From an uncultured Planctomycetia bacterium (lineage in GTDB: Bacteria; Omnitrophota; Gorgyraeia; Duberdicusellales; 4484-171): a stretch of DNA of 64,000 nucleotides. Numbering within the stretch: position 1 is the stretch's first letter; each line of letters begins with the position of its first letter. The stretch lies in NCBI GenBank assembly GCA_964420965.1, contig CAYQUQ010000001.1, positions 31,544 to 95,543 of the forward strand, given 5' to 3'. The notes under the pieces were generated by a model. That model made no database searches. It was not told where the DNA came from and saw nothing but the letters and a program-made list of their open reading frames with translations. A program made the position numbers and the translations under genes. Positions 3,946 to 26,281 of this stretch are shown piece after piece.

Positions 3946-5208
3946 ATGAGAAGGAGAAGTGTTGTTTTTATAGTGATTCTGGCCGTAATCGCACTTTCTT
4001 ACCGGGCCGGTATTTCTTTCGGCCAGGAAGGCGAAAAGAAAAAGGCAGTTAAAAAGGCAGTTAAAAAAGTAATTAAAAAGGATGATTTATATAAAGAGCT
4101 GGAGATCTTCGCCGAAGGATTAGCCGTCATTGAAAAGAAATACGTCGAAGACAAGTCCGCGCAAGACTTAATCTACGGAGCCATGGAAGGGCTGCTGATG
4201 TCCCTGGATTCTTACAGCCAGTTTTTAAGCCCCGATGACTATAAAAACCTTTTAGTGGAAACGGAAGGAAAGTTCGGCGGGTTAGGTATTGAGATTACCA
4301 TCAAGGACGGTTTGCTTACCATCGTCTCGCCTTTAGAAGATACACCGGCATGGAAGGCGGGAGTTAAGGCCAGCGATATAATCGTTAAGATCGAGGGCGA
4401 GTTGACCAAGGGTATTACTTTGAATGAAGCCGTTAAAAAGTTACGGGGCAAACCCGGCACCAAGGTTACCATAACCGTTTTGCGGGAAAAGGGCCGCAAG
4501 CTCGAAGACATAACCATCACCAGAGGAATTATTAAAATAAAAGACATAAAAAGAGCCCTGGTCTTAGAAGACAATATTGGTTACGTGAAAATAGCCGAAT
4601 TTAGAGAGAATACGGCCCGGGATCTGGACAAGGCTTTAGAGAAATTGAATAAAAAAAAGCTCAAAGGTATAATCATTGATTTACGCAATAATCCCGGCGG
4701 GCTGTTGAGCTCAGCCATAGAAGTCAGCAGCCGGTTTATAAAAGACGGGGCCGTGGTCGTATCCACCAAATCCCGCAGTGAAGCGGAGCGGGTGTATAAG
4801 TCCTTGCGGGTCAATAAGAAGTATTTGGATATCCCTTTGGTGGTATTGATAAATAAGGGCAGCGCTTCCGGGAGCGAGATCCTGGCGGCGGCCTTGCGGG
4901 ATAATAAGCAGGCTATTCTGCTGGGGGAGGCAACGTTCGGTAAGGGCTCAGTGCAGACCATAGTACCTTTATCCGACTCTTCGGCGATGCGTCTGACTAC
5001 TTCGAAGTATTATACCCCCACCGGTAAGAGTATTCACGAAAAGGGCATTGAGCCGGATATTCTGGTGACTAAGACCGAAGCCGAAGGCGAGGAAGATGTT
5101 TTTAAAGATCTGGACAAGAAAAAGAAATTCGATTATAAAAAAGATTATCAGATAATCAGAGCCCTGGATTTAATCCGAGGCCTGCTCGTTTTAAAAAACA
5201 GCGAGTAG
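3946..5208 (+). CDS. Carboxyl-terminal processing protease (S41 family) with PDZ domain, signal-anchored
   Basis: N-terminal hydrophobic segment; PDZ-like segment GLGIEITIKDGLLTIVSPLEDTPAWKAGVKASDII; S41 core IIDLRNNPGGLL...GSASGSEILAAAL; RBS AAAGGAGG. Confidence 0.85.
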   Translation: MRRRSVVFIVILAVIALSYRAGISFGQEGEKKKAVKKAVKKVIKKDDLYKELEIFAEGLAVIEKKYVEDKSAQDLIYGAMEGLLMSLDSYSQFLSPDDYKNLLVETEGKFGGLGIEITIKDGLLTIVSPLEDTPAWKAGVKASDIIVKIEGELTKGITLNEAVKKLRGKPGTKVTITVLREKGRKLEDITITRGIIKIKDIKRALVLEDNIGYVKIAEFRENTARDLDKALEKLNKKKLKGIIIDLRNNPGGLLSSAIEVSSRFIKDGAVVVSTKSRSEAERVYKSLRVNKKYLDIPLVVLINKGSASGSEILAAALRDNKQAILLGEATFGKGSVQTIVPLSDSSAMRLTTSKYYTPTGKSIHEKGIEPDILVTKTEAEGEEDVFKDLDKKKKFDYKKDYQIIRALDLIRGLLVLKNSE

Positions 5209-16911: not shown

Positions 16912-17033
16912 GGCGCTCCTTTTATGTTTTATTTTTTCCTATAGTAATTAACATGCGGATTCCCTGTTTTTTAGCTAAGCACGGGATACCGAAGATAGTA
17001 TAGCATTTTCTTGCCAATTTTTGAAAGAATTTT

Positions 17034-17090
17034 AGCTTAAGATTAACCGATAAAGTATTGTTTGAAATCAGGGTGAATATCGAATAGAAT
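17034..17090 (+). promoter_or_regulatory. Conserved promoter module GCTTAAGATTAACCGATAAAGTATTGTTTGAAA-N17-TAGAAT upstream of the nitroreductase gene
   Basis: TTGAAA (17062-17067), 17-nt spacer, TAGAAT (17085-17090); the upstream 28 nt are near-identical to 48257-48289. Confidence 0.6.
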
Positions 17091-17098
17091 TATACGGT

Positions 17099-17608
17099 AT
17101 GAGTATTTTAGAGGTAATAAAGGCGCGCAGGTCAGTACGGAAGTTTAAGCAGAAGGCCGTTCCTTTGAAGGTTATCGAGGGCATTTTAGAGGCCGGCCGG
17201 TGGGCCCCTTCCGGGCTGAATAACCAGCCCTGGCGGTTTATGGTGTTGGGGAAAGAAAAGAAAGATTCCTTAGCCCAATTTACCCATTATGGCCGTATCG
17301 TAAAGGGAGCAGATAAAGTTATTCTGGTATTTTTGGACAAGAAGGCTTCCTATAATTATGAAAAAGATTTAATGGCAATAGGAGCGTGCATTCAAAACAT
17401 GCTCCTTTATATCCACTCTATAAAATTAGGTGCCTGCTGGCTGGGCGAGATCCTAAACCAACGGGAGAAGGTGCAGGGCTTTTTAAAGATATCGAAAATC
17501 CTGGAGTTAGAGGCTGTCATCGCTTTAGGCTATCCCGCAGCCGGCATTAAGAAGGGACGGCGAAAACAGCCAAAAGATTTATCGATGGCAAAATATGAAA
17601 GTATGTAA
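17099..17608 (+). CDS. Nitroreductase family protein
   Basis: IKARRSVRKF....P......ILEAGRWAPSGLNNQPWRFMV. Confidence 0.85.
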   Translation: MSILEVIKARRSVRKFKQKAVPLKVIEGILEAGRWAPSGLNNQPWRFMVLGKEKKDSLAQFTHYGRIVKGADKVILVFLDKKASYNYEKDLMAIGACIQNMLLYIHSIKLGACWLGEILNQREKVQGFLKISKILELEAVIALGYPAAGIKKGRRKQPKDLSMAKYESM

Positions 17609-18740
17609 ACATTTCTCTGAGTGCGGTGGTTGCCGCCTCCAGGATACTCCCTACCCGGAACAACTGGCCGGCAAAGAAGATAAAATAAGAACTCTCCTTG
17701 GTTCTTTAGGTCTTTGCGCAGAGTTAAAACCCATCAATTATTCCGACCAGTGGTATTACCGCAATAAGATGGAGTTTAGCTTCGGCCGGGATGAAAGGGT
17801 TATTTGCGGTTTGTACAGTAAAAACCGGAAAGGGGAGCTTGTCGATTTAGAGGAGTGCCTGATTTTCTCACCCGTCGCGGCCCCGATTCTAAGAGCAGTT
17901 AAAGATTTCGCCCGGCGCAATGAATACCCGGTTTATAATCGCTACTCTCACCAGGGCTTTTTACGCAATGTAATTGTCCGGGAGGCTAAATTTACCCAGC
18001 AGCTCATGGTGGGAATGGTAACTACCAGCAGCCGGGAGTTTAAAGCTGAAGAGTTTGTGGAGGAATTAAGAAGTTTAAAACTAAATTCAGAAGTTAAATC
18101 TATTTACCGGATTATCAATGACTCCTGGTCAGACGCCGTGGTTTTTCAGAGAAAGGAGTTACTTTGGGGAGAGCCGCTGATAGAGGAACAGCTGGGTGAT
18201 TTTAAATTTAAAATCGGTATGGATACTTTTTTTCAGGTTAACCCCGGCATGATCGCTGGCTTCTATGATAAGCTTGCCGGCTATGCTAACCTGTCCGGCC
18301 AGGAAAGGGTTTTAGACCTTTTTTGCGGAGCCGGGTCCATCGGAATCTGGTTGGCCCGAAAAGCTAAGTTTGTCTGGGGGGTGGAAGCCAGCAAAGAGGT
18401 TGTGGATTTAGCCTGGCAAAACGCCAAGATTAATCATATCGAAAATATTTCCTTTTTTAGCGCGGATGCCCGGCGGTTTCTTAATACCCAGGGGGCCTTT
18501 TATCGCGATATCGACCTTTTGGTTATCAATCCTCCCCGCTCGGGGCTCTCCAAGCGGATAATCCGGTCCATCTTAAGGCTTTCTCCCCGGACGATTATTT
18601 ACTCTTCCTGTAACCCCACCGCCTTAGCTCAGGATTTAGGCCAGCTCATTACCGGCTATAACCTCGATTCTATTGAACCCTTTGACTTCTTCCCCCACAC
18701 TCCGCACTTAGAGGTTCTTTGCCTTTTGCGCCGCAAGTAA
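17595..18740 (+). CDS. 23S rRNA (uracil-C5)-methyltransferase, RlmD/RumA family (Fe-S plus class I SAM methyltransferase)
   Basis: N-terminal Cys cluster CKHFSECGGCRLQ; SAM fold LDLFCGAGSIG; C-terminal SSCNP motif. Confidence 0.85.
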   Translation: MKVCKHFSECGGCRLQDTPYPEQLAGKEDKIRTLLGSLGLCAELKPINYSDQWYYRNKMEFSFGRDERVICGLYSKNRKGELVDLEECLIFSPVAAPILRAVKDFARRNEYPVYNRYSHQGFLRNVIVREAKFTQQLMVGMVTTSSREFKAEEFVEELRSLKLNSEVKSIYRIINDSWSDAVVFQRKELLWGEPLIEEQLGDFKFKIGMDTFFQVNPGMIAGFYDKLAGYANLSGQERVLDLFCGAGSIGIWLARKAKFVWGVEASKEVVDLAWQNAKINHIENISFFSADARRFLNTQGAFYRDIDLLVINPPRSGLSKRIIRSILRLSPRTIIYSSCNPTALAQDLGQLITGYNLDSIEPFDFFPHTPHLEVLCLLRRK

Positions 18741-18830
18741 GCGGTTACAAAAAAGCGGTGATTTTGGCCTCAAAGAGAAGATTTTTAGGTATATAAAATG
18801 GTATATTAGAACGGTTACCTGAATTAAGAT
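18741..18830 (+). promoter_or_regulatory. Promoter-region segment A, copy 1 (extended -10 TGGTATATT at 18799-18807)
   Basis: gcggttacaaaaaagcggtgatttt...aaaatggtatattagaacggttacct is duplicated at 19078-19172. Confidence 0.6.
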
Positions 18831-18904
18831 TACCTTGTTTTCTTAAGAGCTTTTCGGGAGAGGCGATAAAAATATTCCTGTTTTTCCAGAATCAGTGATA
18901 GTAA

Positions 18905-19070
18905 ATACTTAGTCTTCATCACAGCCGACACGGAAGAGCGCCGCCGGGGAGGGTGTCGGCAGACCATTCCCTACAGGTAACCAAAACACCGGCGGCATTG
19001 ACTTTATCCCCGGTAGCCTCAGTTTACAGGTTACCGGGGATCTTCAAAATCGAACCCCGGAACGAACTCT
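18905..19070 (+). pseudogene. Decayed fragment homologous to the 3' end of the giant ORF (25990-26160), lying between two copies of a duplicated promoter segment
   Basis: cagccgacacggaagagcgccgccggggagggtgtcggcagaccattccctacaggtaaccaaaacaccggcggcattgactttatcc versus cagccgacacggaggggcaacaacgccgccggggagggtgtcggcagaccattcctcaaaggtaaccaaacacccggcggcattgattttaacc. Confidence 0.7.
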
Positions 19071-19077
19071 GCTTGTA

Positions 19078-19172
19078 AGCGCTTACAAAAAACCCTTGAT
19101 TTTAAAGGGAAATACGAGATTTTCCCTTATCCAAAATGTTATACTCAAGAGGTTACCTCTTTTTTTGAGCGC
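19078..19172 (+). promoter_or_regulatory. Promoter-region segment A, copy 2 (extended -10 TGTTATACT at 19137-19145), about 50 bp upstream of the giant ORF
   Basis: gcgcttacaaaaaacccttgatttt...aaaatgttatactcaagaggttacct. Confidence 0.6.
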
Positions 19173-19219: not shown

Positions 19220-22200
19220 ATGCTGTCATTTTTTCAGAGGCAGAAGGCCACTGTCTCTCTCCGCTTATTAGGTGCATTACTCATTTTCTTTCTGTTTATC
19301 TCTCTAGCCGCTACCTACTTACCTAAGAGATCACCGAAGTATGCTGATTTTCTTCCTCCCCCCGGCAAACTAGTAGCTTTAACCCCCGCCTTTATCCCGC
19401 CGCTTTTACGCGGCCTGACCATCTATCCCCAGGATCCTTTTCGCTTCGACTTCTATATCGAAAACGGCGACAAACACCTTAAAGATGAACAGTTTAAACA
19501 AGAATCCCGGCAGCTGATCAAGTACTTTTTAGCGGCCTTAACCATACCCGAGGAAGACTTCTGGGTCAACCTCTCCCCTTACGAACAAGAAAGAATCGCT
19601 CCTGAGGACTTAGGCGTAACCGAGCTGGGAAAAGCCCTCTTAGGCCAGGACTATATCTTAAAACAACTCCTGGCTTCCCTGATGCACCCGGACAGTGAGA
19701 CCGGAAAAGAGTTCTGGAAGCGGGTCTATAGACGCGCCCATGAGCTCTACGGCACGACCAAAATACCCATTAACACCTTCAACAAGATTTGGATTATGCC
19801 GGAGAAGGCCTTAGTTTACGCCCGGGACAATACCGCTTATGTGGTGGAAAGCCGCCTCAAAGTTTTACTGGAAGAAGACTACCTGGCCTTAAAGCAAAAT
19901 CTTAACCACCCGGCTCCCGGTTCGGAAAAGCTCTCGCCGGATAAGACCAAGGTTTTATGCCGGATATCTTCTAATCTGATCAAGGAAGTCATCCTGCCGG
20001 AAATCGAAACAGAAATCAACCAGGGAGAAAACTTCGCCTCTTTGAGGCAGGCCTTTAACGCCATGGTCTTAGCCGCCTGGTTTAAACGCCGCCTTAAAAC
20101 TCACCTCCTCAATCAGGTCTATACCGATAAAGCCAAACTCAAAGGTGTCGATCTTAAAGATAAAGCCACCAAACAAAAAATCTACCAGCAATACTTAGAG
20201 GCCTACCGGCAAGGCGTATACAACTACATCAAGACTGAATATGACCCCAATATGCAGAAAAACATTTCCCGCCAGTACTACAGCGGCGGCTTTGCCTGGG
20301 GAAAGCCCGGGGAATGGTTGGGTGAGACCGGCCAGGCCCCCTTATCCCGCCGGGAAGGAGCCAATGTCCAGGTGGCTTTGCGGGCGGAAATGGGGCAGAC
20401 AAGGAGAGTTTCCTCGCCCAGTGAGAGTAGTGGAGATGAGCTTAAGGTTCTCTATAACGCGGCTTTAGCCGGTGATAGTTCCGCGGTAAACCAGTTAAAG
20501 GCATTTGCTCTCTCTTCCGACCACGCCCTAGCCCAAAGCGCCTACGAATACCTGGATCACCTGGCCTACAAAGAAAGCAACTTAGAGAGCATCCAGGCCG
20601 TAAAGGAGCTGGCCCTTTCTGCGGATATACCCCGGGAAGCCAAACTTAATTCCAATAGCCAGGGTATCATCGATGACTTAGCTTATATCGTCCGGGAAGC
20701 CCAGCACCATATCAGCAGCGAAGCCCGCAAGGCGGCTTTAGACGCTTTAGAGGAAATCATGTTTGCTTATGCTAAGAGCGATACCAAGATAGCCGATTAT
20801 ATCTTAAACCGCATATTCACCCCCTTAAGGAATGGCTACATAAACACTATCCCCGACGGAGCCGAGCTGGCCACCCAGGCCTTAAAAAGAATGGTGGAGT
20901 CTGACCAGATCGGTTCAGGCTTAACTGCCCAGGCTTTAACGGCTAAACCGGAACAACCCTTAGCCGTATTTAATACCGTAACTGACCCGGCGGCCCAAGG
21001 ATATACCCCTGGGCATAAAAAGACAGCCTTGGAAAACTTAAACCTGGCCCAGGCCGCCCAGGTAATCCCCCGGATAAAGGAGCTGGTCTTCTCCCAGGAC
21101 CACGCCCTAGCCCAAAGCGCCTACGAATACCTGGATCACCTGGCCTACAAAGAAAGCAACTTAGACAGCATCCAGGCCGTGAAGGAGCTGGCCCTGTCTG
21201 CGGATATACCCCGGAAGGCTAAACTTGACTCCAATAACCAGGGCATTATCGATGACTTAGCTTATATCGTCCGGGAAATACAACTGAACGTCAGCAGAGA
21301 AGCCCGCAAGGCGGCCCTGGCGGCTTTAGAAGAGATCCTGTTTGCCTACGCTAACGATACCAACATAGCCGATTACATCTTGAACCGCGTATTCATCGCC
21401 CTAAGGGAACAGGTGATAAGCGCTATCCCCGACGGAGCCGAGCTGGCCACCCAGGCTTTAAAAAGAATGGTGGAGTCTGACCAGATCGGCCCAGGTTTAA
21501 CGGCCCGGGCCTTAACGGCTAAACCGGAACAACCCTTAGCCGTATTTAATACCGTAACTGACCCGGCGGCCCAAGGATATACCCCTGGGCATAAAAAGAC
21601 AGCCTTGGAAAACTTAAACCTGGCCCAGGCCGCCCAGGTAATCCCCCGGATAAAGGAGCTGGTCTTCTCCCAGGACCACGCCCTAGCCCAAAGCGCCTAC
21701 GAATACCTGGATCACCTGGCCTACAAAGAAAGCAACTTAGACAGCATCCAGGCCGTGAAGGAGCTGGCCCTGTCTGCGGATATACCCCGGAAGGCTAAAC
21801 TTGACTCCAATAACCAGGGCATCATCGATGACTTAGCTTATATCGTCCGGGAAACCCAGCACCATATCAGCAGCGAAGCCCGCAAAGCGGCCCTGGCGGC
21901 TTTAGGAGAGATTGCTGCCGCTGATTTTGCCGACGATGCTATCATCAGATACTTACAGAATGATAACGGCGTTAAAGCAATAATCCGCAGTACCTCACTA
22001 CCAGCTATCCCCCAAGATTTATGGGAGTTGCTACAAACAGCTAATCAGGATGCTCCTTCCAACAAGCAGATAAATTTAGAATCATTTATGGCTGACTACT
22101 GGCTTACCGTGGCCCGGCTTTACCACCTGGATCCACGCTATTGCCGCCAGATATTTGACGCTATCCTTTCCGGCCTGGGGCCAAAGCGGCTAGCGGCATT

Positions 22201-25200
22201 CTTAAAGGATATACAACCGGCCCTTTGGGATGAAACCATTTACCCAGCATTAAAGTCAATATTTAAACAGGCCCAAGAGCGGGATCATGCTTATGCCCAG
22301 AGAATTATCGAGTTAGCTGCCGCCTATAAGGATTTAGGGATCAGCCAGTTATTTGTGCAGCTGGCCGCGCAGGAAGCCCAAAAACGCCGGGTTACGGTCC
22401 GGCAGGTATATTTAGCTCTAGCCCAGGAGTTAATCAAAGCCTTTGCCCAGAAACTGGGAGTTACCCTGGACCGGGTGACTGCCGAGACCATTGAAAATTG
22501 GTATTTGCCTTATTTATCCAAGCTGTTTGTGGGCCGGCGCATTGTCTATGCTCACGGCAGCAGCCACCGGCCCCTGCAGCAGCTATTCGATTCAGTGATC
22601 AAGGCCACCCTGGAAGGTAAATTCGCTGAGATGATCACTGATACCAGTGATGCCAACGCTTATCCCATGGGTAAAAGAATTGCTGAGCAGAATCAGAAGG
22701 TGAGAAAAGCCTTAGAGTTATTAGGCATTGACTTAGAAGAGTGGTTAGGCTATCAAGAGGAAGCCCGGTTTAGCTTAGAGCAGGCCCAGGGCAGCCGGAT
22801 TGATGTGGCCGCAGAATTACAGGGCTTGGCCGAGCAGTTTTTCGCTCTTCTCGATAAGCTGCAGGAAAAGCACGGGAATATGGTCAGGGGTAGTTTAGGT
22901 AAGATGGGCTTAGAATTAGTGGAAGATGCTCAAGGCAGGCGTCTGGTTCAGAATAATGGTCGGCAGGAAACCAATCAGAAAGTGGCCCTTAAAGCCTTGA
23001 TGGGTTTATTATTTAAAAACCAGGGTAACTTCAGCAAACTCCAGAAAAGCTTGAATTTCCTGGATAGAAATTATCAGGGCCAGGAAGCGGCTACCTTAAT
23101 CTTCCACATCCGGGAAAAACTAGAGATGCTTAACCGCCTGGTCAATAATCCCGCAGAATTTAAAAAAGCCCTGGAAGGCCCGCAGGCATTTTTAATCCGC
23201 AGGTGGGCCCGAAATCCCGGCCGGGATATCTTCCAGGGTAACTTTACCGGATGCTGTGTGGCTATCGATAACGACTTACACCCGGAGGCCATTATCGAAT
23301 ACCTCATTGACCAGGGGATTCAGATTGTGGAGGTTGTTGATGAGGCTACCGGCTTAGCCGTAGCCCAGACATGGGTTTTTGTAGCCGTTAATCAAAACGG
23401 CAAGCCGGTTTTAGTTTTAGACAATATTGAAGTCGAGGAAACTTACCCTAAAACTTCCGGTCAGAATAAAATAATCCGTGATCACCTGGTAGCCTACATG
23501 CAGAAATATGCGCAGGCTATCGACGTCGAGGAGCTTTATTTAGGGGTAACCCAGTACAACGATGTGAACACCAGTGATTACCCCACTGTTTCTGATCAGT
23601 TGGTCAAGCCCGGGGGTTACCTCTGGGATTTTGAAGGCGCAAACTATACCTACTATTTAGAGTCCATGTACGGCGAAACCGTTCAGCAGAGTTCGCACCG
23701 CGCCGACGGAAGTATCCCTTCTACGGCCCGGCAGTTCCACCGCCTTCCTTTGCCTAAGCTTCCGCCTAAACCGGTGGATAATAGCCGGATCGGCGTCGAC
23801 CGCGTTCTACCCGATCAGGCCGAGGGGATTTTAGATCAACTGGTCCAGGTAGAGGCCGGGGCTTATTCTAATCCGGAATTAAGGCTGGGAAGAGAATTTT
23901 TACGCCACTCCGTAAATAATCCCCAGGGGGTCAATATGGTATTGCGCTACAAGGGAAGAATAATCGGCTACGCCCTCTCTGTTCCGGCTGAGGACGAGGA
24001 GGCTGCTCCCCAGATTCCCCACAGCCTTTACCTTGAGGATTTTGCTATTCTGCCCGAGTTCCGCAATAATCCGGCGGCCAATCTTAAGTTTATCCGGGGA
24101 TTTCTCCGGGAGGTAACCAACGGTACCTATCAGACCGTAACCCTGCATACTCATGGTGGGATTGTCAAATTTCTGGTGGATGATTTTGGCTTTGCCATAG
24201 TCGGTAAAGAAGATAATTGGCTTGATTCGGGAGAGACCTTTTATTTATTGCGCTGGGATAAGGCTTCTTCTTCGGTCTCCTCACCATCGTCTTCTCCCCG
24301 CAGAGAGGAGCTAGAGAGGTTACGCGATGCCCTGATGAATGCCGCGGAGAGATTAAAATCGAATCTCGTCCTACACCATAAGGAAGTAGAAGATTTTCAT
24401 AGCACAGTCAGTATATATAATGGACAAGAAATGACCACCGGAGAAATGCTGGATGAACTCAGAAGAGGTATGTATAGGATTAAAACCCGCGAAGAATTAA
24501 TGGATGAGTTGCACCTCTGGATGGATTGGCATATTGAGCATGCATTACATGTAGATAGTGTTGTTTCCCACGCTGCTTCCCGCAGCTCCAAACAAGTGGT
24601 AAGAGAATTGCTGATCAGAGAGTTCGATCTTAAGACTTTAATGTTGATCGATATAGAATATTTAGAGGGGGAAGGAAAAGGCTTTGCCCGGGGCGGATAC
24701 GGAATAGGTAAACACGAGAAATTAGACGAACCGAGACAAAAACAAGTAGCCCAGTGGTATAATCGCCATTTATATGAAGGATTCGAAGTCTTACAGACGG
24801 TTTTAGAAGAGCGGGAACTTCCCTGGGAAGTTGATTTTCAGGAGTATGAACAGTCATTTAAATTTTGGTTTCCTGACAATATTTCTCGGCCTATTGCCCG
24901 CGAGCGGCAGAGAGGGCAGACTTACGAAGATAGCGTGAATGCCAGTCTTGCGGAGGTTAATGCAGCCATTAAGGAGGTTAATGAGGAGTTACGCCAGTAT
25001 GCTGATCCCGATGAAAGTTCATCGTCCCCCAACGCCTCGTCCTCATCCCAGCCGGACGGTACAGGAAAAGATATTACCAGAAGAAGATTTTTGAAGCGTC
25101 TGACCGCGACTGCAACTGTAGCGACGGTAGCGCCTAATGATATCATTCTACCGGGATCCACGTTACCGTCTCCGGCATCTCCAGTCAGAATAAGTTATGC

Positions 25201-26281
25201 TCTTCTGCGCGATATGCTATCAGGAATAGGTGCTGTTCAAATGCCTACTACAGGGAGTCGGGGTAATTTAATTGTATTTGATGATTTTCCTTTTTGGTGG
25301 CATCTGCGGAGAGTATTGCCAGAGGGGCAGAAAGATGAAGCAGAAAAAATTGCAGAAAAATTACTGAGAGCGGCTGTGTTAGAGGCCAGACAGAGGCTGA
25401 GGACAGCAGGGATTATAGAGACAGGAGAGGCCGCAGAACAAGTTATTGGAGATATCGAGAGGGCATTCGATGATTCAGCCCATGAGGTTCGTAGAACGAT
25501 AGAGAAAGGAGGTTATTCAGAAGACCTGGTATACGATGCTATTAAAAAAGCACAAAAAGCAATAGCGCAACAGCAGGATAAAAAAGAGGATGGCCTTGAG
25601 CAACCAGAACCGGAGATCATGTACACCGACTCCGGCTTTCCGGACTTTGATATTACCCAGATGCAGGATATAGAGCTTATTGGACGAATTGAGGTAATCG
25701 AAGCTGACCTGTTCAGGCAGCTGCAGCTAAGGAGTGCTTCTGACCGGGATATCCGCACACTCGCCGGCCGTATCTATCTGGCCCAGCGGGCAGCAGAGGG
25801 AAGGGCTATGGCTGAAGTAACTGATCTTAGTCCGATTGGTAATATCACCCAAGATGATCTAGAGTCAATCGGCGGCCGCGTGTTAGGTCTGATGGGGATG
25901 AGCGGGGTAGGCGAAAGTCCGCCTGAAGGTCAACCCAAGCAGGCAGGACTTACCGTCTTATCAACGACAGATTCGTCTTCTCCCAACGCTTCGTCCTCAT
26001 CCCAGCCGACACGGAGGGGCAACAACGCCGCCGGGGAGGGTGTCGGCAGACCATTCCTCAAAGGTAACCAAACACCCGGCGGCATTGATTTTAACCCTGA
26101 TAACCTGGATTTACAGGTTATCGGGGATAATAGCAGGGAGCGGTCTCGACCGTTCCCTGCTGAATCTCAGCTTCCTTTCGATACCCATAATTTCCAAGGC
26201 TTTACCTTCCAGATTCTCAAAATCGAGCCGGTTACAGACCCAGTCCATATTACCAAAGGACCCCAGCTTTCTCGCCGCTAA
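19220..26281 (+). CDS. Giant modular membrane-anchored protein (2,353 aa) with internal 192-aa tandem repeats and Ser/Pro-rich linkers; function unknown
   Basis: Uninterrupted 7,062-bp ORF; N-terminal TM helix LLGALLIFFLFISLAA; repeat array 20515-21915; possible GNAT-like segment at about 23900-24260; internal Tat-like motif TRRRFLKRL; duplicated linker SSSPNASSSSQP. Confidence 0.8.
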   Translation: MLSFFQRQKATVSLRLLGALLIFFLFISLAATYLPKRSPKYADFLPPPGKLVALTPAFIPPLLRGLTIYPQDPFRFDFYIENGDKHLKDEQFKQESRQLIKYFLAALTIPEEDFWVNLSPYEQERIAPEDLGVTELGKALLGQDYILKQLLASLMHPDSETGKEFWKRVYRRAHELYGTTKIPINTFNKIWIMPEKALVYARDNTAYVVESRLKVLLEEDYLALKQNLNHPAPGSEKLSPDKTKVLCRISSNLIKEVILPEIETEINQGENFASLRQAFNAMVLAAWFKRRLKTHLLNQVYTDKAKLKGVDLKDKATKQKIYQQYLEAYRQGVYNYIKTEYDPNMQKNISRQYYSGGFAWGKPGEWLGETGQAPLSRREGANVQVALRAEMGQTRRVSSPSESSGDELKVLYNAALAGDSSAVNQLKAFALSSDHALAQSAYEYLDHLAYKESNLESIQAVKELALSADIPREAKLNSNSQGIIDDLAYIVREAQHHISSEARKAALDALEEIMFAYAKSDTKIADYILNRIFTPLRNGYINTIPDGAELATQALKRMVESDQIGSGLTAQALTAKPEQPLAVFNTVTDPAAQGYTPGHKKTALENLNLAQAAQVIPRIKELVFSQDHALAQSAYEYLDHLAYKESNLDSIQAVKELALSADIPRKAKLDSNNQGIIDDLAYIVREIQLNVSREARKAALAALEEILFAYANDTNIADYILNRVFIALREQVISAIPDGAELATQALKRMVESDQIGPGLTARALTAKPEQPLAVFNTVTDPAAQGYTPGHKKTALENLNLAQAAQVIPRIKELVFSQDHALAQSAYEYLDHLAYKESNLDSIQAVKELALSADIPRKAKLDSNNQGIIDDLAYIVRETQHHISSEARKAALAALGEIAAADFADDAIIRYLQNDNGVKAIIRSTSLPAIPQDLWELLQTANQDAPSNKQINLESFMADYWLTVARLYHLDPRYCRQIFDAILSGLGPKRLAAFLKDIQPALWDETIYPALKSIFKQAQERDHAYAQRIIELAAAYKDLGISQLFVQLAAQEAQKRRVTVRQVYLALAQELIKAFAQKLGVTLDRVTAETIENWYLPYLSKLFVGRRIVYAHGSSHRPLQQLFDSVIKATLEGKFAEMITDTSDANAYPMGKRIAEQNQKVRKALELLGIDLEEWLGYQEEARFSLEQAQGSRIDVAAELQGLAEQFFALLDKLQEKHGNMVRGSLGKMGLELVEDAQGRRLVQNNGRQETNQKVALKALMGLLFKNQGNFSKLQKSLNFLDRNYQGQEAATLIFHIREKLEMLNRLVNNPAEFKKALEGPQAFLIRRWARNPGRDIFQGNFTGCCVAIDNDLHPEAIIEYLIDQGIQIVEVVDEATGLAVAQTWVFVAVNQNGKPVLVLDNIEVEETYPKTSGQNKIIRDHLVAYMQKYAQAIDVEELYLGVTQYNDVNTSDYPTVSDQLVKPGGYLWDFEGANYTYYLESMYGETVQQSSHRADGSIPSTARQFHRLPLPKLPPKPVDNSRIGVDRVLPDQAEGILDQLVQVEAGAYSNPELRLGREFLRHSVNNPQGVNMVLRYKGRIIGYALSVPAEDEEAAPQIPHSLYLEDFAILPEFRNNPAANLKFIRGFLREVTNGTYQTVTLHTHGGIVKFLVDDFGFAIVGKEDNWLDSGETFYLLRWDKASSSVSSPSSSPRREELERLRDALMNAAERLKSNLVLHHKEVEDFHSTVSIYNGQEMTTGEMLDELRRGMYRIKTREELMDELHLWMDWHIEHALHVDSVVSHAASRSSKQVVRELLIREFDLKTLMLIDIEYLEGEGKGFARGGYGIGKHEKLDEPRQKQVAQWYNRHLYEGFEVLQTVLEERELPWEVDFQEYEQSFKFWFPDNISRPIARERQRGQTYEDSVNASLAEVNAAIKEVNEELRQYADPDESSSSPNASSSSQPDGTGKDITRRRFLKRLTATATVATVAPNDIILPGSTLPSPASPVRISYALLRDMLSGIGAVQMPTTGSRGNLIVFDDFPFWWHLRRVLPEGQKDEAEKIAEKLLRAAVLEARQRLRTAGIIETGEAAEQVIGDIERAFDDSAHEVRRTIEKGGYSEDLVYDAIKKAQKAIAQQQDKKEDGLEQPEPEIMYTDSGFPDFDITQMQDIELIGRIEVIEADLFRQLQLRSASDRDIRTLAGRIYLAQRAAEGRAMAEVTDLSPIGNITQDDLESIGGRVLGLMGMSGVGESPPEGQPKQAGLTVLSTTDSSSPNASSSSQPTRRGNNAAGEGVGRPFLKGNQTPGGIDFNPDNLDLQVIGDNSRERSRPFPAESQLPFDTHNFQGFTFQILKIEPVTDPVHITKGPQLSRR
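20515..21915 (+). repeat. About 2.4 tandem copies of a 576-579-bp coding repeat inside the giant ORF (copy 1 20515-21093, copy 2 21094-21669, partial copy 3 21670-about 21915)
   Basis: Identical string ccacgccctagcccaaagcgcctacgaatacctggatcacctggcctacaaagaaagcaacttag at 20521, 21100 and 21676; the copy ends share more than 150 bp of exact identity. Confidence 0.9.
26132..26161. repeat. Near-palindromic 30-mer related to the korA palindrome, inside the giant ORF 3' region
   Basis: agcagggagcggtctcgaccgttccctgct (2 mismatches from a perfect palindrome). Confidence 0.8.

Follow-up and report, generated by a model that had tools for sequence, protein, structure and literature searches.

Results

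A giant gene with an internal tandem repeat

The window, by which we mean the whole 64-kb stretch of DNA that was analyzed, is a segment of a bacterial chromosome with a GC content of ~46%. It contains a gene of ~7 kb, which encodes a protein of 2353 aa and is flanked on both sides by housekeeping genes (for an Era-type GTPase, a nitroreductase, a RumA-like methyltransferase, and an acyl-CoA ligase). As shown in Table 1, the gene product consists, from its N-terminus onwards, of a hydrophobic anchor, a head, a middle, and a tail, of which the head and the tail are conserved and the middle is variable. The N-terminal segment was the only strongly hydrophobic one detected when all 2353 aa were scanned. 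We searched Pfam and NCBIfam with the whole host protein and with each of its four quarters. The sole family match in the host protein above its cut-off was a short internal Tat-signal (TIGR01409, 21.1 bits versus a cut-off of 16.7); Pfam also gave a sub-threshold match to GNAT at aa 1541-1617. In the search with the whole protein, Pfam gave no HEAT/ARM match at E values up to 1, and NCBIfam gave no HEAT/ARM match on the host protein either. The sequence of the host protein is found exactly in the NCBI-derived protein collection (P0001).

Table 1. Features of the repeat-containing gene and its 5' flank (window coordinates)
Feature	Coordinates	Strand	Description
Intergenic tail-domain relic	18904..19041	+	48 codons, 5' of the ORF; 69% identity to the host gene's own tail
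Host gene	19220..26281	+	ORF of 2353 aa
Hydrophobic segment (aa ~10-35)	19247..19324	+	signal anchor or signal peptide; Kyte-Doolittle scan; model helix 12-32
Head domain (aa 1-~387)	19220..20380	+	45-60% identity to the best 118 of 1611 matched proteins
U1	20519..21097	+	full unit, 579 bp, 193 codons
311-bp exact tract, upstream copy	20936..21246	+	end of U1 and start of U2
U2	21098..21673	+	full unit, 576 bp, 192 codons; the unit absent from contig L003
U2-specific hyper-diverged patch	21279..21298	+	9 differences/20 bp; QLNVSR (U2) versus QHHISS (U1, U3)
311-bp exact tract, downstream copy	21512..21822	+	end of U2 and start of U3
106-bp patch	21598..21703	+	contains all 16 substitutions that distinguish the window from contig L002; conversion tract or popped bulge
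U3	21674..~21912	+	partial unit, ~80 codons (40%); homology to U1/U2 stops near offset 239
Tail (aa ~2257-2353)	25988..26278	+	GGIDFNP..LDLQ motif; tail motif in 108/119 family members

Offset profiles and a codon-aware alignment revealed about 2.4 in-frame copies of the repeat unit in the host gene, and a direct-repeat search returned three copies at spacings of 579 and 576 bp. Tandem Repeats Finder gave no match in the repeat region because the longest period that it reports (500) is shorter than the 576-bp unit. The longest exact match in the repeat is 311 bp and spans a unit boundary, with 162 bp from the ends of U1 and U2 and 149 bp from the starts of U2 and U3; further, 68 exact bases (20519-20586) are common to all three copies. 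The repeat region is rich in alanine (17%) and has a GC content of 0.53, compared with 0.49 for the rest of the gene and 0.46 for the window. We found no ORFs of 50 aa or more in the other frames on either strand of the repeat and no Rfam families within it.

The repeat units are mosaics of one another

At an offset of 576, we counted 49 differences over 566 aligned bases (91.3% identity). The identity of the units is patchy, with 30-bp bins ranging from 100% down to 63-83%. Segments adjoining the exact tracts are 70-88% identical between copies, and the first 255 bases of U1 are 88% identical to the corresponding bases of U2 or U3. At the protein level, U1 and U2 share 164 of 193 residues (85%), the remainder comprising 28 residue differences and one codon indel. 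We also noted three short patches that diverge by 30-45%, mostly with changes of amino acid, inside DNA that is otherwise identical. An earlier note on this DNA had described three near-identical 576-bp copies inside a giant ORF, which shared exact stretches of more than 150 bp and whose protein-level divergence was confined to a few residues. The position and the period of the repeat were right, the 311-bp run bears out the exact stretches, and the peptides REAQHHISSE, REIQLNVSRE, and RETQHHISSE are all present. Near-identity holds for the exact tracts (up to 311 bp) and not for the segments of 70-88% identity; in place of three copies, there are two full units and 40% of another; and U1 and U2 diverge at 29 of 193 positions, which is more than a few residues.

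In the diverged segments, dS between units was 0.13-0.41 and dN/dS, a comparison that the earlier note had proposed, was 0.17-0.53, which indicates that the units are translated and under purifying selection. None of 20,000 permutations of the differences gave an identical run as long as the longest one observed (p < 5e-5), and this was true of both the window and a JGI contig of the same clone (L002, described below). The 311-bp tract has ~72 synonymous sites and no synonymous difference, whereas the dS of the other parts of the units would predict 9-30 (probability of 1e-4 to 1e-13 at that dS); for the 119-bp tract found in the JGI form, the corresponding probability is 0.03 to 2e-5. Further, the copies are grouped in conflicting ways along the unit: U2 and U3 agree against U1 at offsets 68-146 (10 informative sites), U1 and U3 agree against U2 at offset 149 and offsets 181-200 (10 informative sites, including the QHHISS/QLNVSR patch), and U2 and U3 agree against U1 once more at offsets 218-236. 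These conflicting blocks imply exchange between copies rather than one duplication followed by point mutation.

Long exact stretches would also be present after a very recent duplication, the copies of which are still diverging by new mutations and have undergone no gene conversion. We consider this explanation very improbable: dS is 0.13-0.41 elsewhere in these units, the differences are strongly clustered (p < 5e-5), and the grouping of the copies changes along the unit. Because such a dS is found beside exact tracts, the duplication is not very recent, and the tracts of identity are secondary. Past gene conversion among the units is supported by these observations. The proposal of the earlier note, recent duplication or conversion, therefore stands for conversion, on the conflicting blocks of sites, and not for a very recent duplication, given the dS.

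Public assemblies of one clone differ in the repeat

We compared the window with contigs that encode members of the same 90% protein cluster or were found by exact-protein look-ups, and for which the DNA was retrieved. The contigs covered JGI samples 3300009431, 3300009326, 3300009374, 3300009373, and 3300009128 and ENA assemblies of SAMN10231903/04 and SAMN11854493/94. A search for related loci among metagenome contigs gave no relative, and a 35-mer common to all three units had no match in the collections of metagenome and genome contigs, which lack this organism. Outside the repeat, these assemblies, which come from at least eight samples, are >99.99% identical to the window (0-1 mismatches per 13-21 kb); the ENA scaffolds depart from this by a few small differences, and a 7.8-kb JGI contig (L004) has three mismatches.

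Within the repeat, three kinds of difference were seen. First, JGI contig L002 differs from the window by exactly 16 substitutions over 13,062 bp, all of them inside the 106-bp patch listed in Table 1 (the chance of such clustering is approximately 7e-31). At all 16 sites, the base in the window is the one found 576 bp upstream in both assemblies, and the window, judged by its sequence, looks like L002 after the U1/U2 junction has been copied over the U2/U3 junction. The protein encoded by L002 was found on seven JGI contigs. Second, JGI contig L003, with a product of 2161 aa, is the window minus exactly one 576-bp unit and is otherwise identical over 12.5 kb. Third, ENA scaffolds L001 and L005, from two BioSamples, contain 100 N in place of window positions 20574-21191. 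The piece to the left of the gap stops 55 bp into the stretch common to all copies, and the piece to the right begins 55 bp 5' of the first U2-specific base; the 55-bp edges on both sides fit a de Bruijn graph with k=55. Both scaffolds have the window-type junction. Because the window-type junction is limited to NCBI/ENA assemblies and the diverged one to JGI assemblies, the type of allele is confounded with the assembly pipeline. With respect to the proneness to copy-number variation and to short-read collapse that the earlier note had proposed, L003 does have one unit fewer, though biology and an assembler artefact both fit, and the gaps of 100 N in L001 and L005 are in line with collapse.

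The 16 differences in the patch involve all four bases, in both directions, and are not adenine-specific, and mutagenesis of the kind directed by diversity-generating retroelements (DGRs) was ruled out on these grounds. An ectopic donor for the JGI-type patches or for the U2-specific patch was not found within the 64-kb window.

The differences between assemblies were produced either by genuine recombination or by the assembler (through bulge popping and loop collapse). In the latter case, the true form everywhere would be that of L002, and the 311-bp tract and the shorter contig would have been made by the assembler: a bulge would be popped at small k, which would homogenize the copies, and the resulting loop would be traversed once, gapped, or skipped. 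We regard this as a real possibility, with chances somewhat short of even. Assemblers that use a small k treat patches between exact flanks as bulges, and popping is usual at equal coverage. The patches in L002 (9 differences/28 bp and 7 differences/23 bp), which are bordered by exact flanks of 86, 55, and 119 bp, have the geometry of bulges at k=55-77, and the break points of the ENA scaffolds match k=55 exactly. Further, the homogenized junction occurs in non-JGI assemblies only and the diverged one on seven JGI contigs, and the flanks of the window are identical to the JGI contigs, so the assemblies may represent the same population. It counts against an artefact that the homogenized junction recurs, in the same direction each time, in three assemblies that represent two or more BioSamples and differ slightly in background (deletions in the neighboring methyltransferase gene), and that the shorter contig L003 shares its source with the seven contigs that have three units. 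Moreover, the JGI form is a mosaic as well and requires earlier conversion. If the artefact explanation were true, the longest exact tract would shrink from 311 to 119 bp, and the repeat, its mosaic structure, and the hazard for assembly would be unaffected.

The repeat region is predicted to be helical

When the 192-aa unit was used as a phmmer query against 1.84 billion representative proteins, it matched only its own protein; aa 430-910 received no alignment from any of the 118 family members examined, and Pfam and NCBIfam had no match on the repeat region. Because the unit has no homologues, no alignment supports the fold model, for which AlphaFold2 was given the single sequence of aa 400-1000. 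The 601 residues are modeled as entirely helical, with 34 helices, at moderate confidence (mean pLDDT of 70 and pTM of 0.46). In a Foldseek search of the PDB with this model, the top 50 matches were all HEAT/ARM solenoids (E values of 1e-6 to 6e-5), including SF3b155, CAND1, importin alpha and beta, and PP2A-A. The global TM-scores to the PDB solenoids were low (0.15-0.29), as would be expected of solenoids that flex. The unit is thus predicted to consist of ~10-11 helices in a HEAT/ARM-like alpha-solenoid, and we infer from the model that each unit would lengthen the solenoid by a block of ~5 hairpins.

The host protein belongs to an Omnitrophota family

The head matched 1611 proteins with lengths of 1.3-4 kaa, and every one of them with a named lineage belongs to Omnitrophota. 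The family is defined by an N-terminal hydrophobic segment, a head of ~350 aa (with WVNLSPYE), and a C-terminal tail of ~70 aa (GGID(L/F)NP..LDLQ). The tail, with its motif, is at the end of 108 of 119 members. The host protein has all of these elements, and its tail can be aligned with several members. No family in Pfam or NCBIfam corresponds to the head; a model of it built from a 40-sequence alignment (pLDDT of 71 and pTM of 0.64) had no match in the PDB better than E=0.05. We found no description of the head-tail family in the literature.

The middles of the members differ widely in their Pfam domains. Some carry metabolic enzymes (phosphoglycerate kinase, glucose-6-phosphate isomerase, phosphoglucomutase, malate synthase/isocitrate lyase, GAPDH, and acyl-CoA dehydrogenase), and others contain a UbiB kinase with an M48 peptidase, GNAT, methyltransferases, receiver domains, or HEAT_2. 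Internal repeats were counted by windowed self-queries, which replaced a whole-protein self-BLASTP in which contained HSPs are culled. Such repeats were present in 39 of 120 members, and eight members other than the host protein have repeats with at least 90% identity over 80 residues. This indicates that recent internal duplication is a habit of the family and not a peculiarity of the host gene.

Discussion

We consider it likely that the repeat arose by in-frame tandem duplication of a lineage-specific helical-solenoid block and was then reshaped by recombination between the units. A block of 192 codons (~10-11 predicted helices) would have been duplicated in frame directly after the conserved head. 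Non-reciprocal gene conversion would then repeatedly have replaced stretches of one unit with those of another, leaving exact tracts of up to 119-311 bp, depending on the form, beside diverged patches. These tracts may in turn serve as substrates for unequal crossover or slippage, by which whole 576-bp units would be gained or lost; any such event would keep the frame, so the solenoid would become one block longer or shorter. Because the exact tracts are longer than the k-mers of short-read assembly, assemblies break, gap, or collapse at the repeat. Of this account, the repeat, its mosaic structure, the purifying selection on its units, and the restriction of differences within one clone to this place were observed directly, whereas the fold, the mechanism of recombination, and any effect of length on function are inferred.

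A further explanation holds that copy number itself has been selected, with the repeat as an adjustable stalk or scaffold, like that of the Periscope Proteins discussed below, that sets the distance of distal modules from the membrane and the hyper-diverged patches as specificity residues. Several observations point this way: the unit size is in frame and two assemblies differ in length by one unit; the N-terminal anchor is followed by an elongated predicted helical repeat; the three short patches of 30-45% divergence are mostly amino-acid-changing and lie in otherwise identical DNA; and near-identical internal repeats recur in the family. In addition, according to a preprint by West-Roberts et al. 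on the giant "Archaeovorin" proteins of Omnitrophota, HEAT repeats are the commonest domain in their predicted extracellular regions (bioRxiv 10.1101/2023.11.21.568195). However, the array comprises just 2.4 units, and of its two lengths one is perhaps an artefact; the predicted fold, a curved solenoid, differs from a rod of globular domains; and the overall dN/dS is less than 1. We therefore think selection on copy number quite unlikely, and given 2.4 copies, any functional role for the change in length is conjecture.

The reading that we prefer, duplication followed by recombination between units, invokes the familiar behavior of gene-internal tandem repeats, i.e. concerted evolution by conversion, with gain and loss of units by unequal recombination. 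In group B streptococci, the alpha C/Rib repeats are intragenic tandem repeats that undergo concerted evolution by gene conversion. The repeat described here resembles them in the mosaic identity of its units, its exact tracts, and the possible deletion of a whole unit between close relatives. In contrast, the alpha C/Rib repeats are set in a context of immune evasion, whereas the repeat in the host gene is not and has only three units.

The closest named class is that of the Periscope Proteins, which includes the SasG/Aap, Rib, and Sgo_0707 SHIRT arrays and for which intragenic recombination has been proposed to add or remove units (PMC8201768). The resemblance is genetic, and membership in the class is not established: in both cases, long in-frame DNA repeats with stretches of high identity lie in the gene of an anchored bacterial protein, and short-read assembly is unreliable at the repeats (PMC8201768). 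The Periscope Proteins have many globular, mostly beta-rich domains arranged in a straight rod, which carries a functional domain at its far end, and a proven location at the cell surface, whereas the host protein has 2.4 predicted solenoid blocks. Their repeats are of high identity, whereas identity in the host repeat is patchy, at 70-100% (85% between the proteins of U1 and U2 and 88-91% in DNA). Further, Periscope Proteins vary in repeat number between strains; here, the product of L003 (2161 aa) is one unit shorter than that of the window or L002 (2353 aa), which may reflect collapse.

According to the preprint, the Archaeovorin-type proteins are like the host protein in coming from the same phylum, in being membrane-associated and multi-module with enzyme-like domains along the polypeptide, and in having assemblies fragmented by repeats. 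They differ in their size of at least 30,000 aa and their many transmembrane helices (compared with 2353 aa and one hydrophobic segment) and in their SecA-like, glycosyltransferase, methyltransferase, glycosyl hydrolase, peptidase, and NUDIX domains, none of which were matched by Pfam in the host protein. The passages of the preprint that were consulted do not describe the head or tail domains (bioRxiv 10.1101/2023.11.21.568195). With the HEAT/ARM proteins (importins, CAND1, PP2A-A, and SF3b155), the host protein would share stacks of antiparallel helix hairpins, as far as its model goes. However, these proteins repeat a single hairpin, whereas the host repeat would be a super-repeat of ~5 hairpins and has no Pfam profile match.

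On a broader reading, the repeat could be an adjustable spacer in an undescribed Omnitrophota system, in which an anchored head and a tail bracket freely exchangeable cargo (in paralogues, this would include entire enzymes of glycolysis and others that are normally cytoplasmic) and which is remodeled by internal duplication, conversion, and loss of units. Since the head lacks a family in Pfam or NCBIfam and a fold match in the PDB, the family might then be a novel means by which these host-dependent nanobacteria anchor, export, or display proteins. We think this unlikely, if still worth stating. On the spacer reading, the tail relic 5' of the gene would count as a sign that the family is remodeled on very short time scales.

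As for the practical meaning of these results, the length and the sequence of the host gene are unreliable in any short-read assembly, since the public versions differ by 16 bases, by a 576-bp unit, and by a gap. Populations from at least eight samples, identical elsewhere, differ only at the repeat, and if the differences are real, they would illustrate clearly, in nature, how gene conversion occurs and units are lost inside one clone of an uncultured phylum. As a recombining repeat inside a gene, the repeat is of an ordinary kind, whereas the protein that contains it is unusual. It is this protein that gives the findings their wider value, as it represents a very large unannotated family of Omnitrophota with a conserved head and tail and a swappable, enzyme-bearing middle.

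Head and tail of the giant ORF

The head and tail of the giant ORF define a very large family confined to Omnitrophota, for which we obtained 1611 matches at E<=1e-3 (8000 candidates scored). The middles of its members contain unrelated enzyme domains, such as PGK, PGI, PGM, malate synthase, GAPDH, UbiB+M48, GNAT, methyltransferases, and receiver domains. The head corresponded to no family in Pfam or NCBIfam, and a fold search of the PDB with it returned no match.

Features of the window
Feature	Position in window	Size or sequence	Remark
Tandem array	4039-4081	12-bp unit x 3.6 copies, AAAAAGGCAGTT	Tandem Repeats Finder
RumA-like methyltransferase gene	17595-18740		deletions at 18064-18129 in ENA scaffolds
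Tail-domain relic	18904-19041	48 codons	intergenic, 5' of giant ORF
Head of giant ORF	19220-20380	~387 aa	
Ser-rich linker, two copies	25018-25054 and 25972-26008	SSSPNASSSSQP	DNA 89% identical
Internal twin-arginine signal match (TIGR01409)	25073-25177 (aa ~1952-1986)	RRRFLKRLTATATVATVAP	
Tail of giant ORF	25988-26278	~70 aa	motif GGID(L/F)NP..LDLQ
Compact cluster resembling type II polyketide or fatty-acid system	30884-36874		gene table and ORFs

We also observed internal repeats in seven other members of this head-tail family (P0053, P0091, P0010, P0036, P0009, P0041, and P0055), with protein identities of 90-100% (in 80-aa windows) and spacings ranging from 42 to >2000 aa. The genes encoding these proteins are probably also mis-assembled or variable.

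A tail relic upstream of the giant ORF

The intergenic tail relic is 69% identical to the giant ORF's own tail and lacks a start codon. Two promoter-like segments that resemble each other (18741-18830 and ~19080-19160) lie on either side of it and have in common the sequence TTACAAAAAA..TGATTTT..AAAATG.TATA..GGTTACCT. The relic and its flanks look like what is left of a neighbouring paralogue that was deleted.

Differences between assemblies outside the repeat

The deletions in the RumA-like methyltransferase gene differ between the two ENA scaffolds: one lacks 20 bp at 18064-18083, with AATTAAGAAGTT/AATTCAGAAGTT on either side, and the other lacks 48 bp at 18082-18129, and each deletion splits the gene call. 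The JGI contigs, which are other assemblies of the same clone, agree with the window here. Further, L001, an ENA scaffold with a 100-N gap in the repeat, has two tight groups of substitutions relative to the window, with 3 within 12 bp (17027-17038) and 4 within 31 bp (24034-24064). These may reflect strain variation or errors in local assembly.

Other features of the window

The polyketide- or fatty-acid-like cluster, here in the genome of an Omnitrophota bacterium, comprises two tandem ketoacyl-synthase genes and genes for an acyl carrier protein, a cyclase (PF04199), a polyketide cyclase (PF10604/PF03364), an MFS transporter, and a short-chain reductase, and is followed by a B12-binding radical SAM gene. 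The 12-bp array, the sole one found in the window by Tandem Repeats Finder, lies close to the start of an ORF at 3946-5208.

Composition and internal modules of the giant ORF

The GC content of the giant ORF (19220-26281) is 0.49-0.53, compared with a window mean of 0.46, its GC3 is 0.58-0.63, and the region 20001-22000 displays a strong AT skew (0.195). Ser/Pro stretches resembling the Ser-rich linker are also found at aa ~396-405 and ~1684-1693, and such stretches stand between modules. Deep within the ORF, directly 3' of a Ser/Pro-rich linker, lies the TIGR01409 match, which scored 21.1 bits (cut-off, 16.7) and at which the ENA gene call P0124 starts. The giant ORF may have arisen by fusion of modules that were once separate, or its product may be processed.
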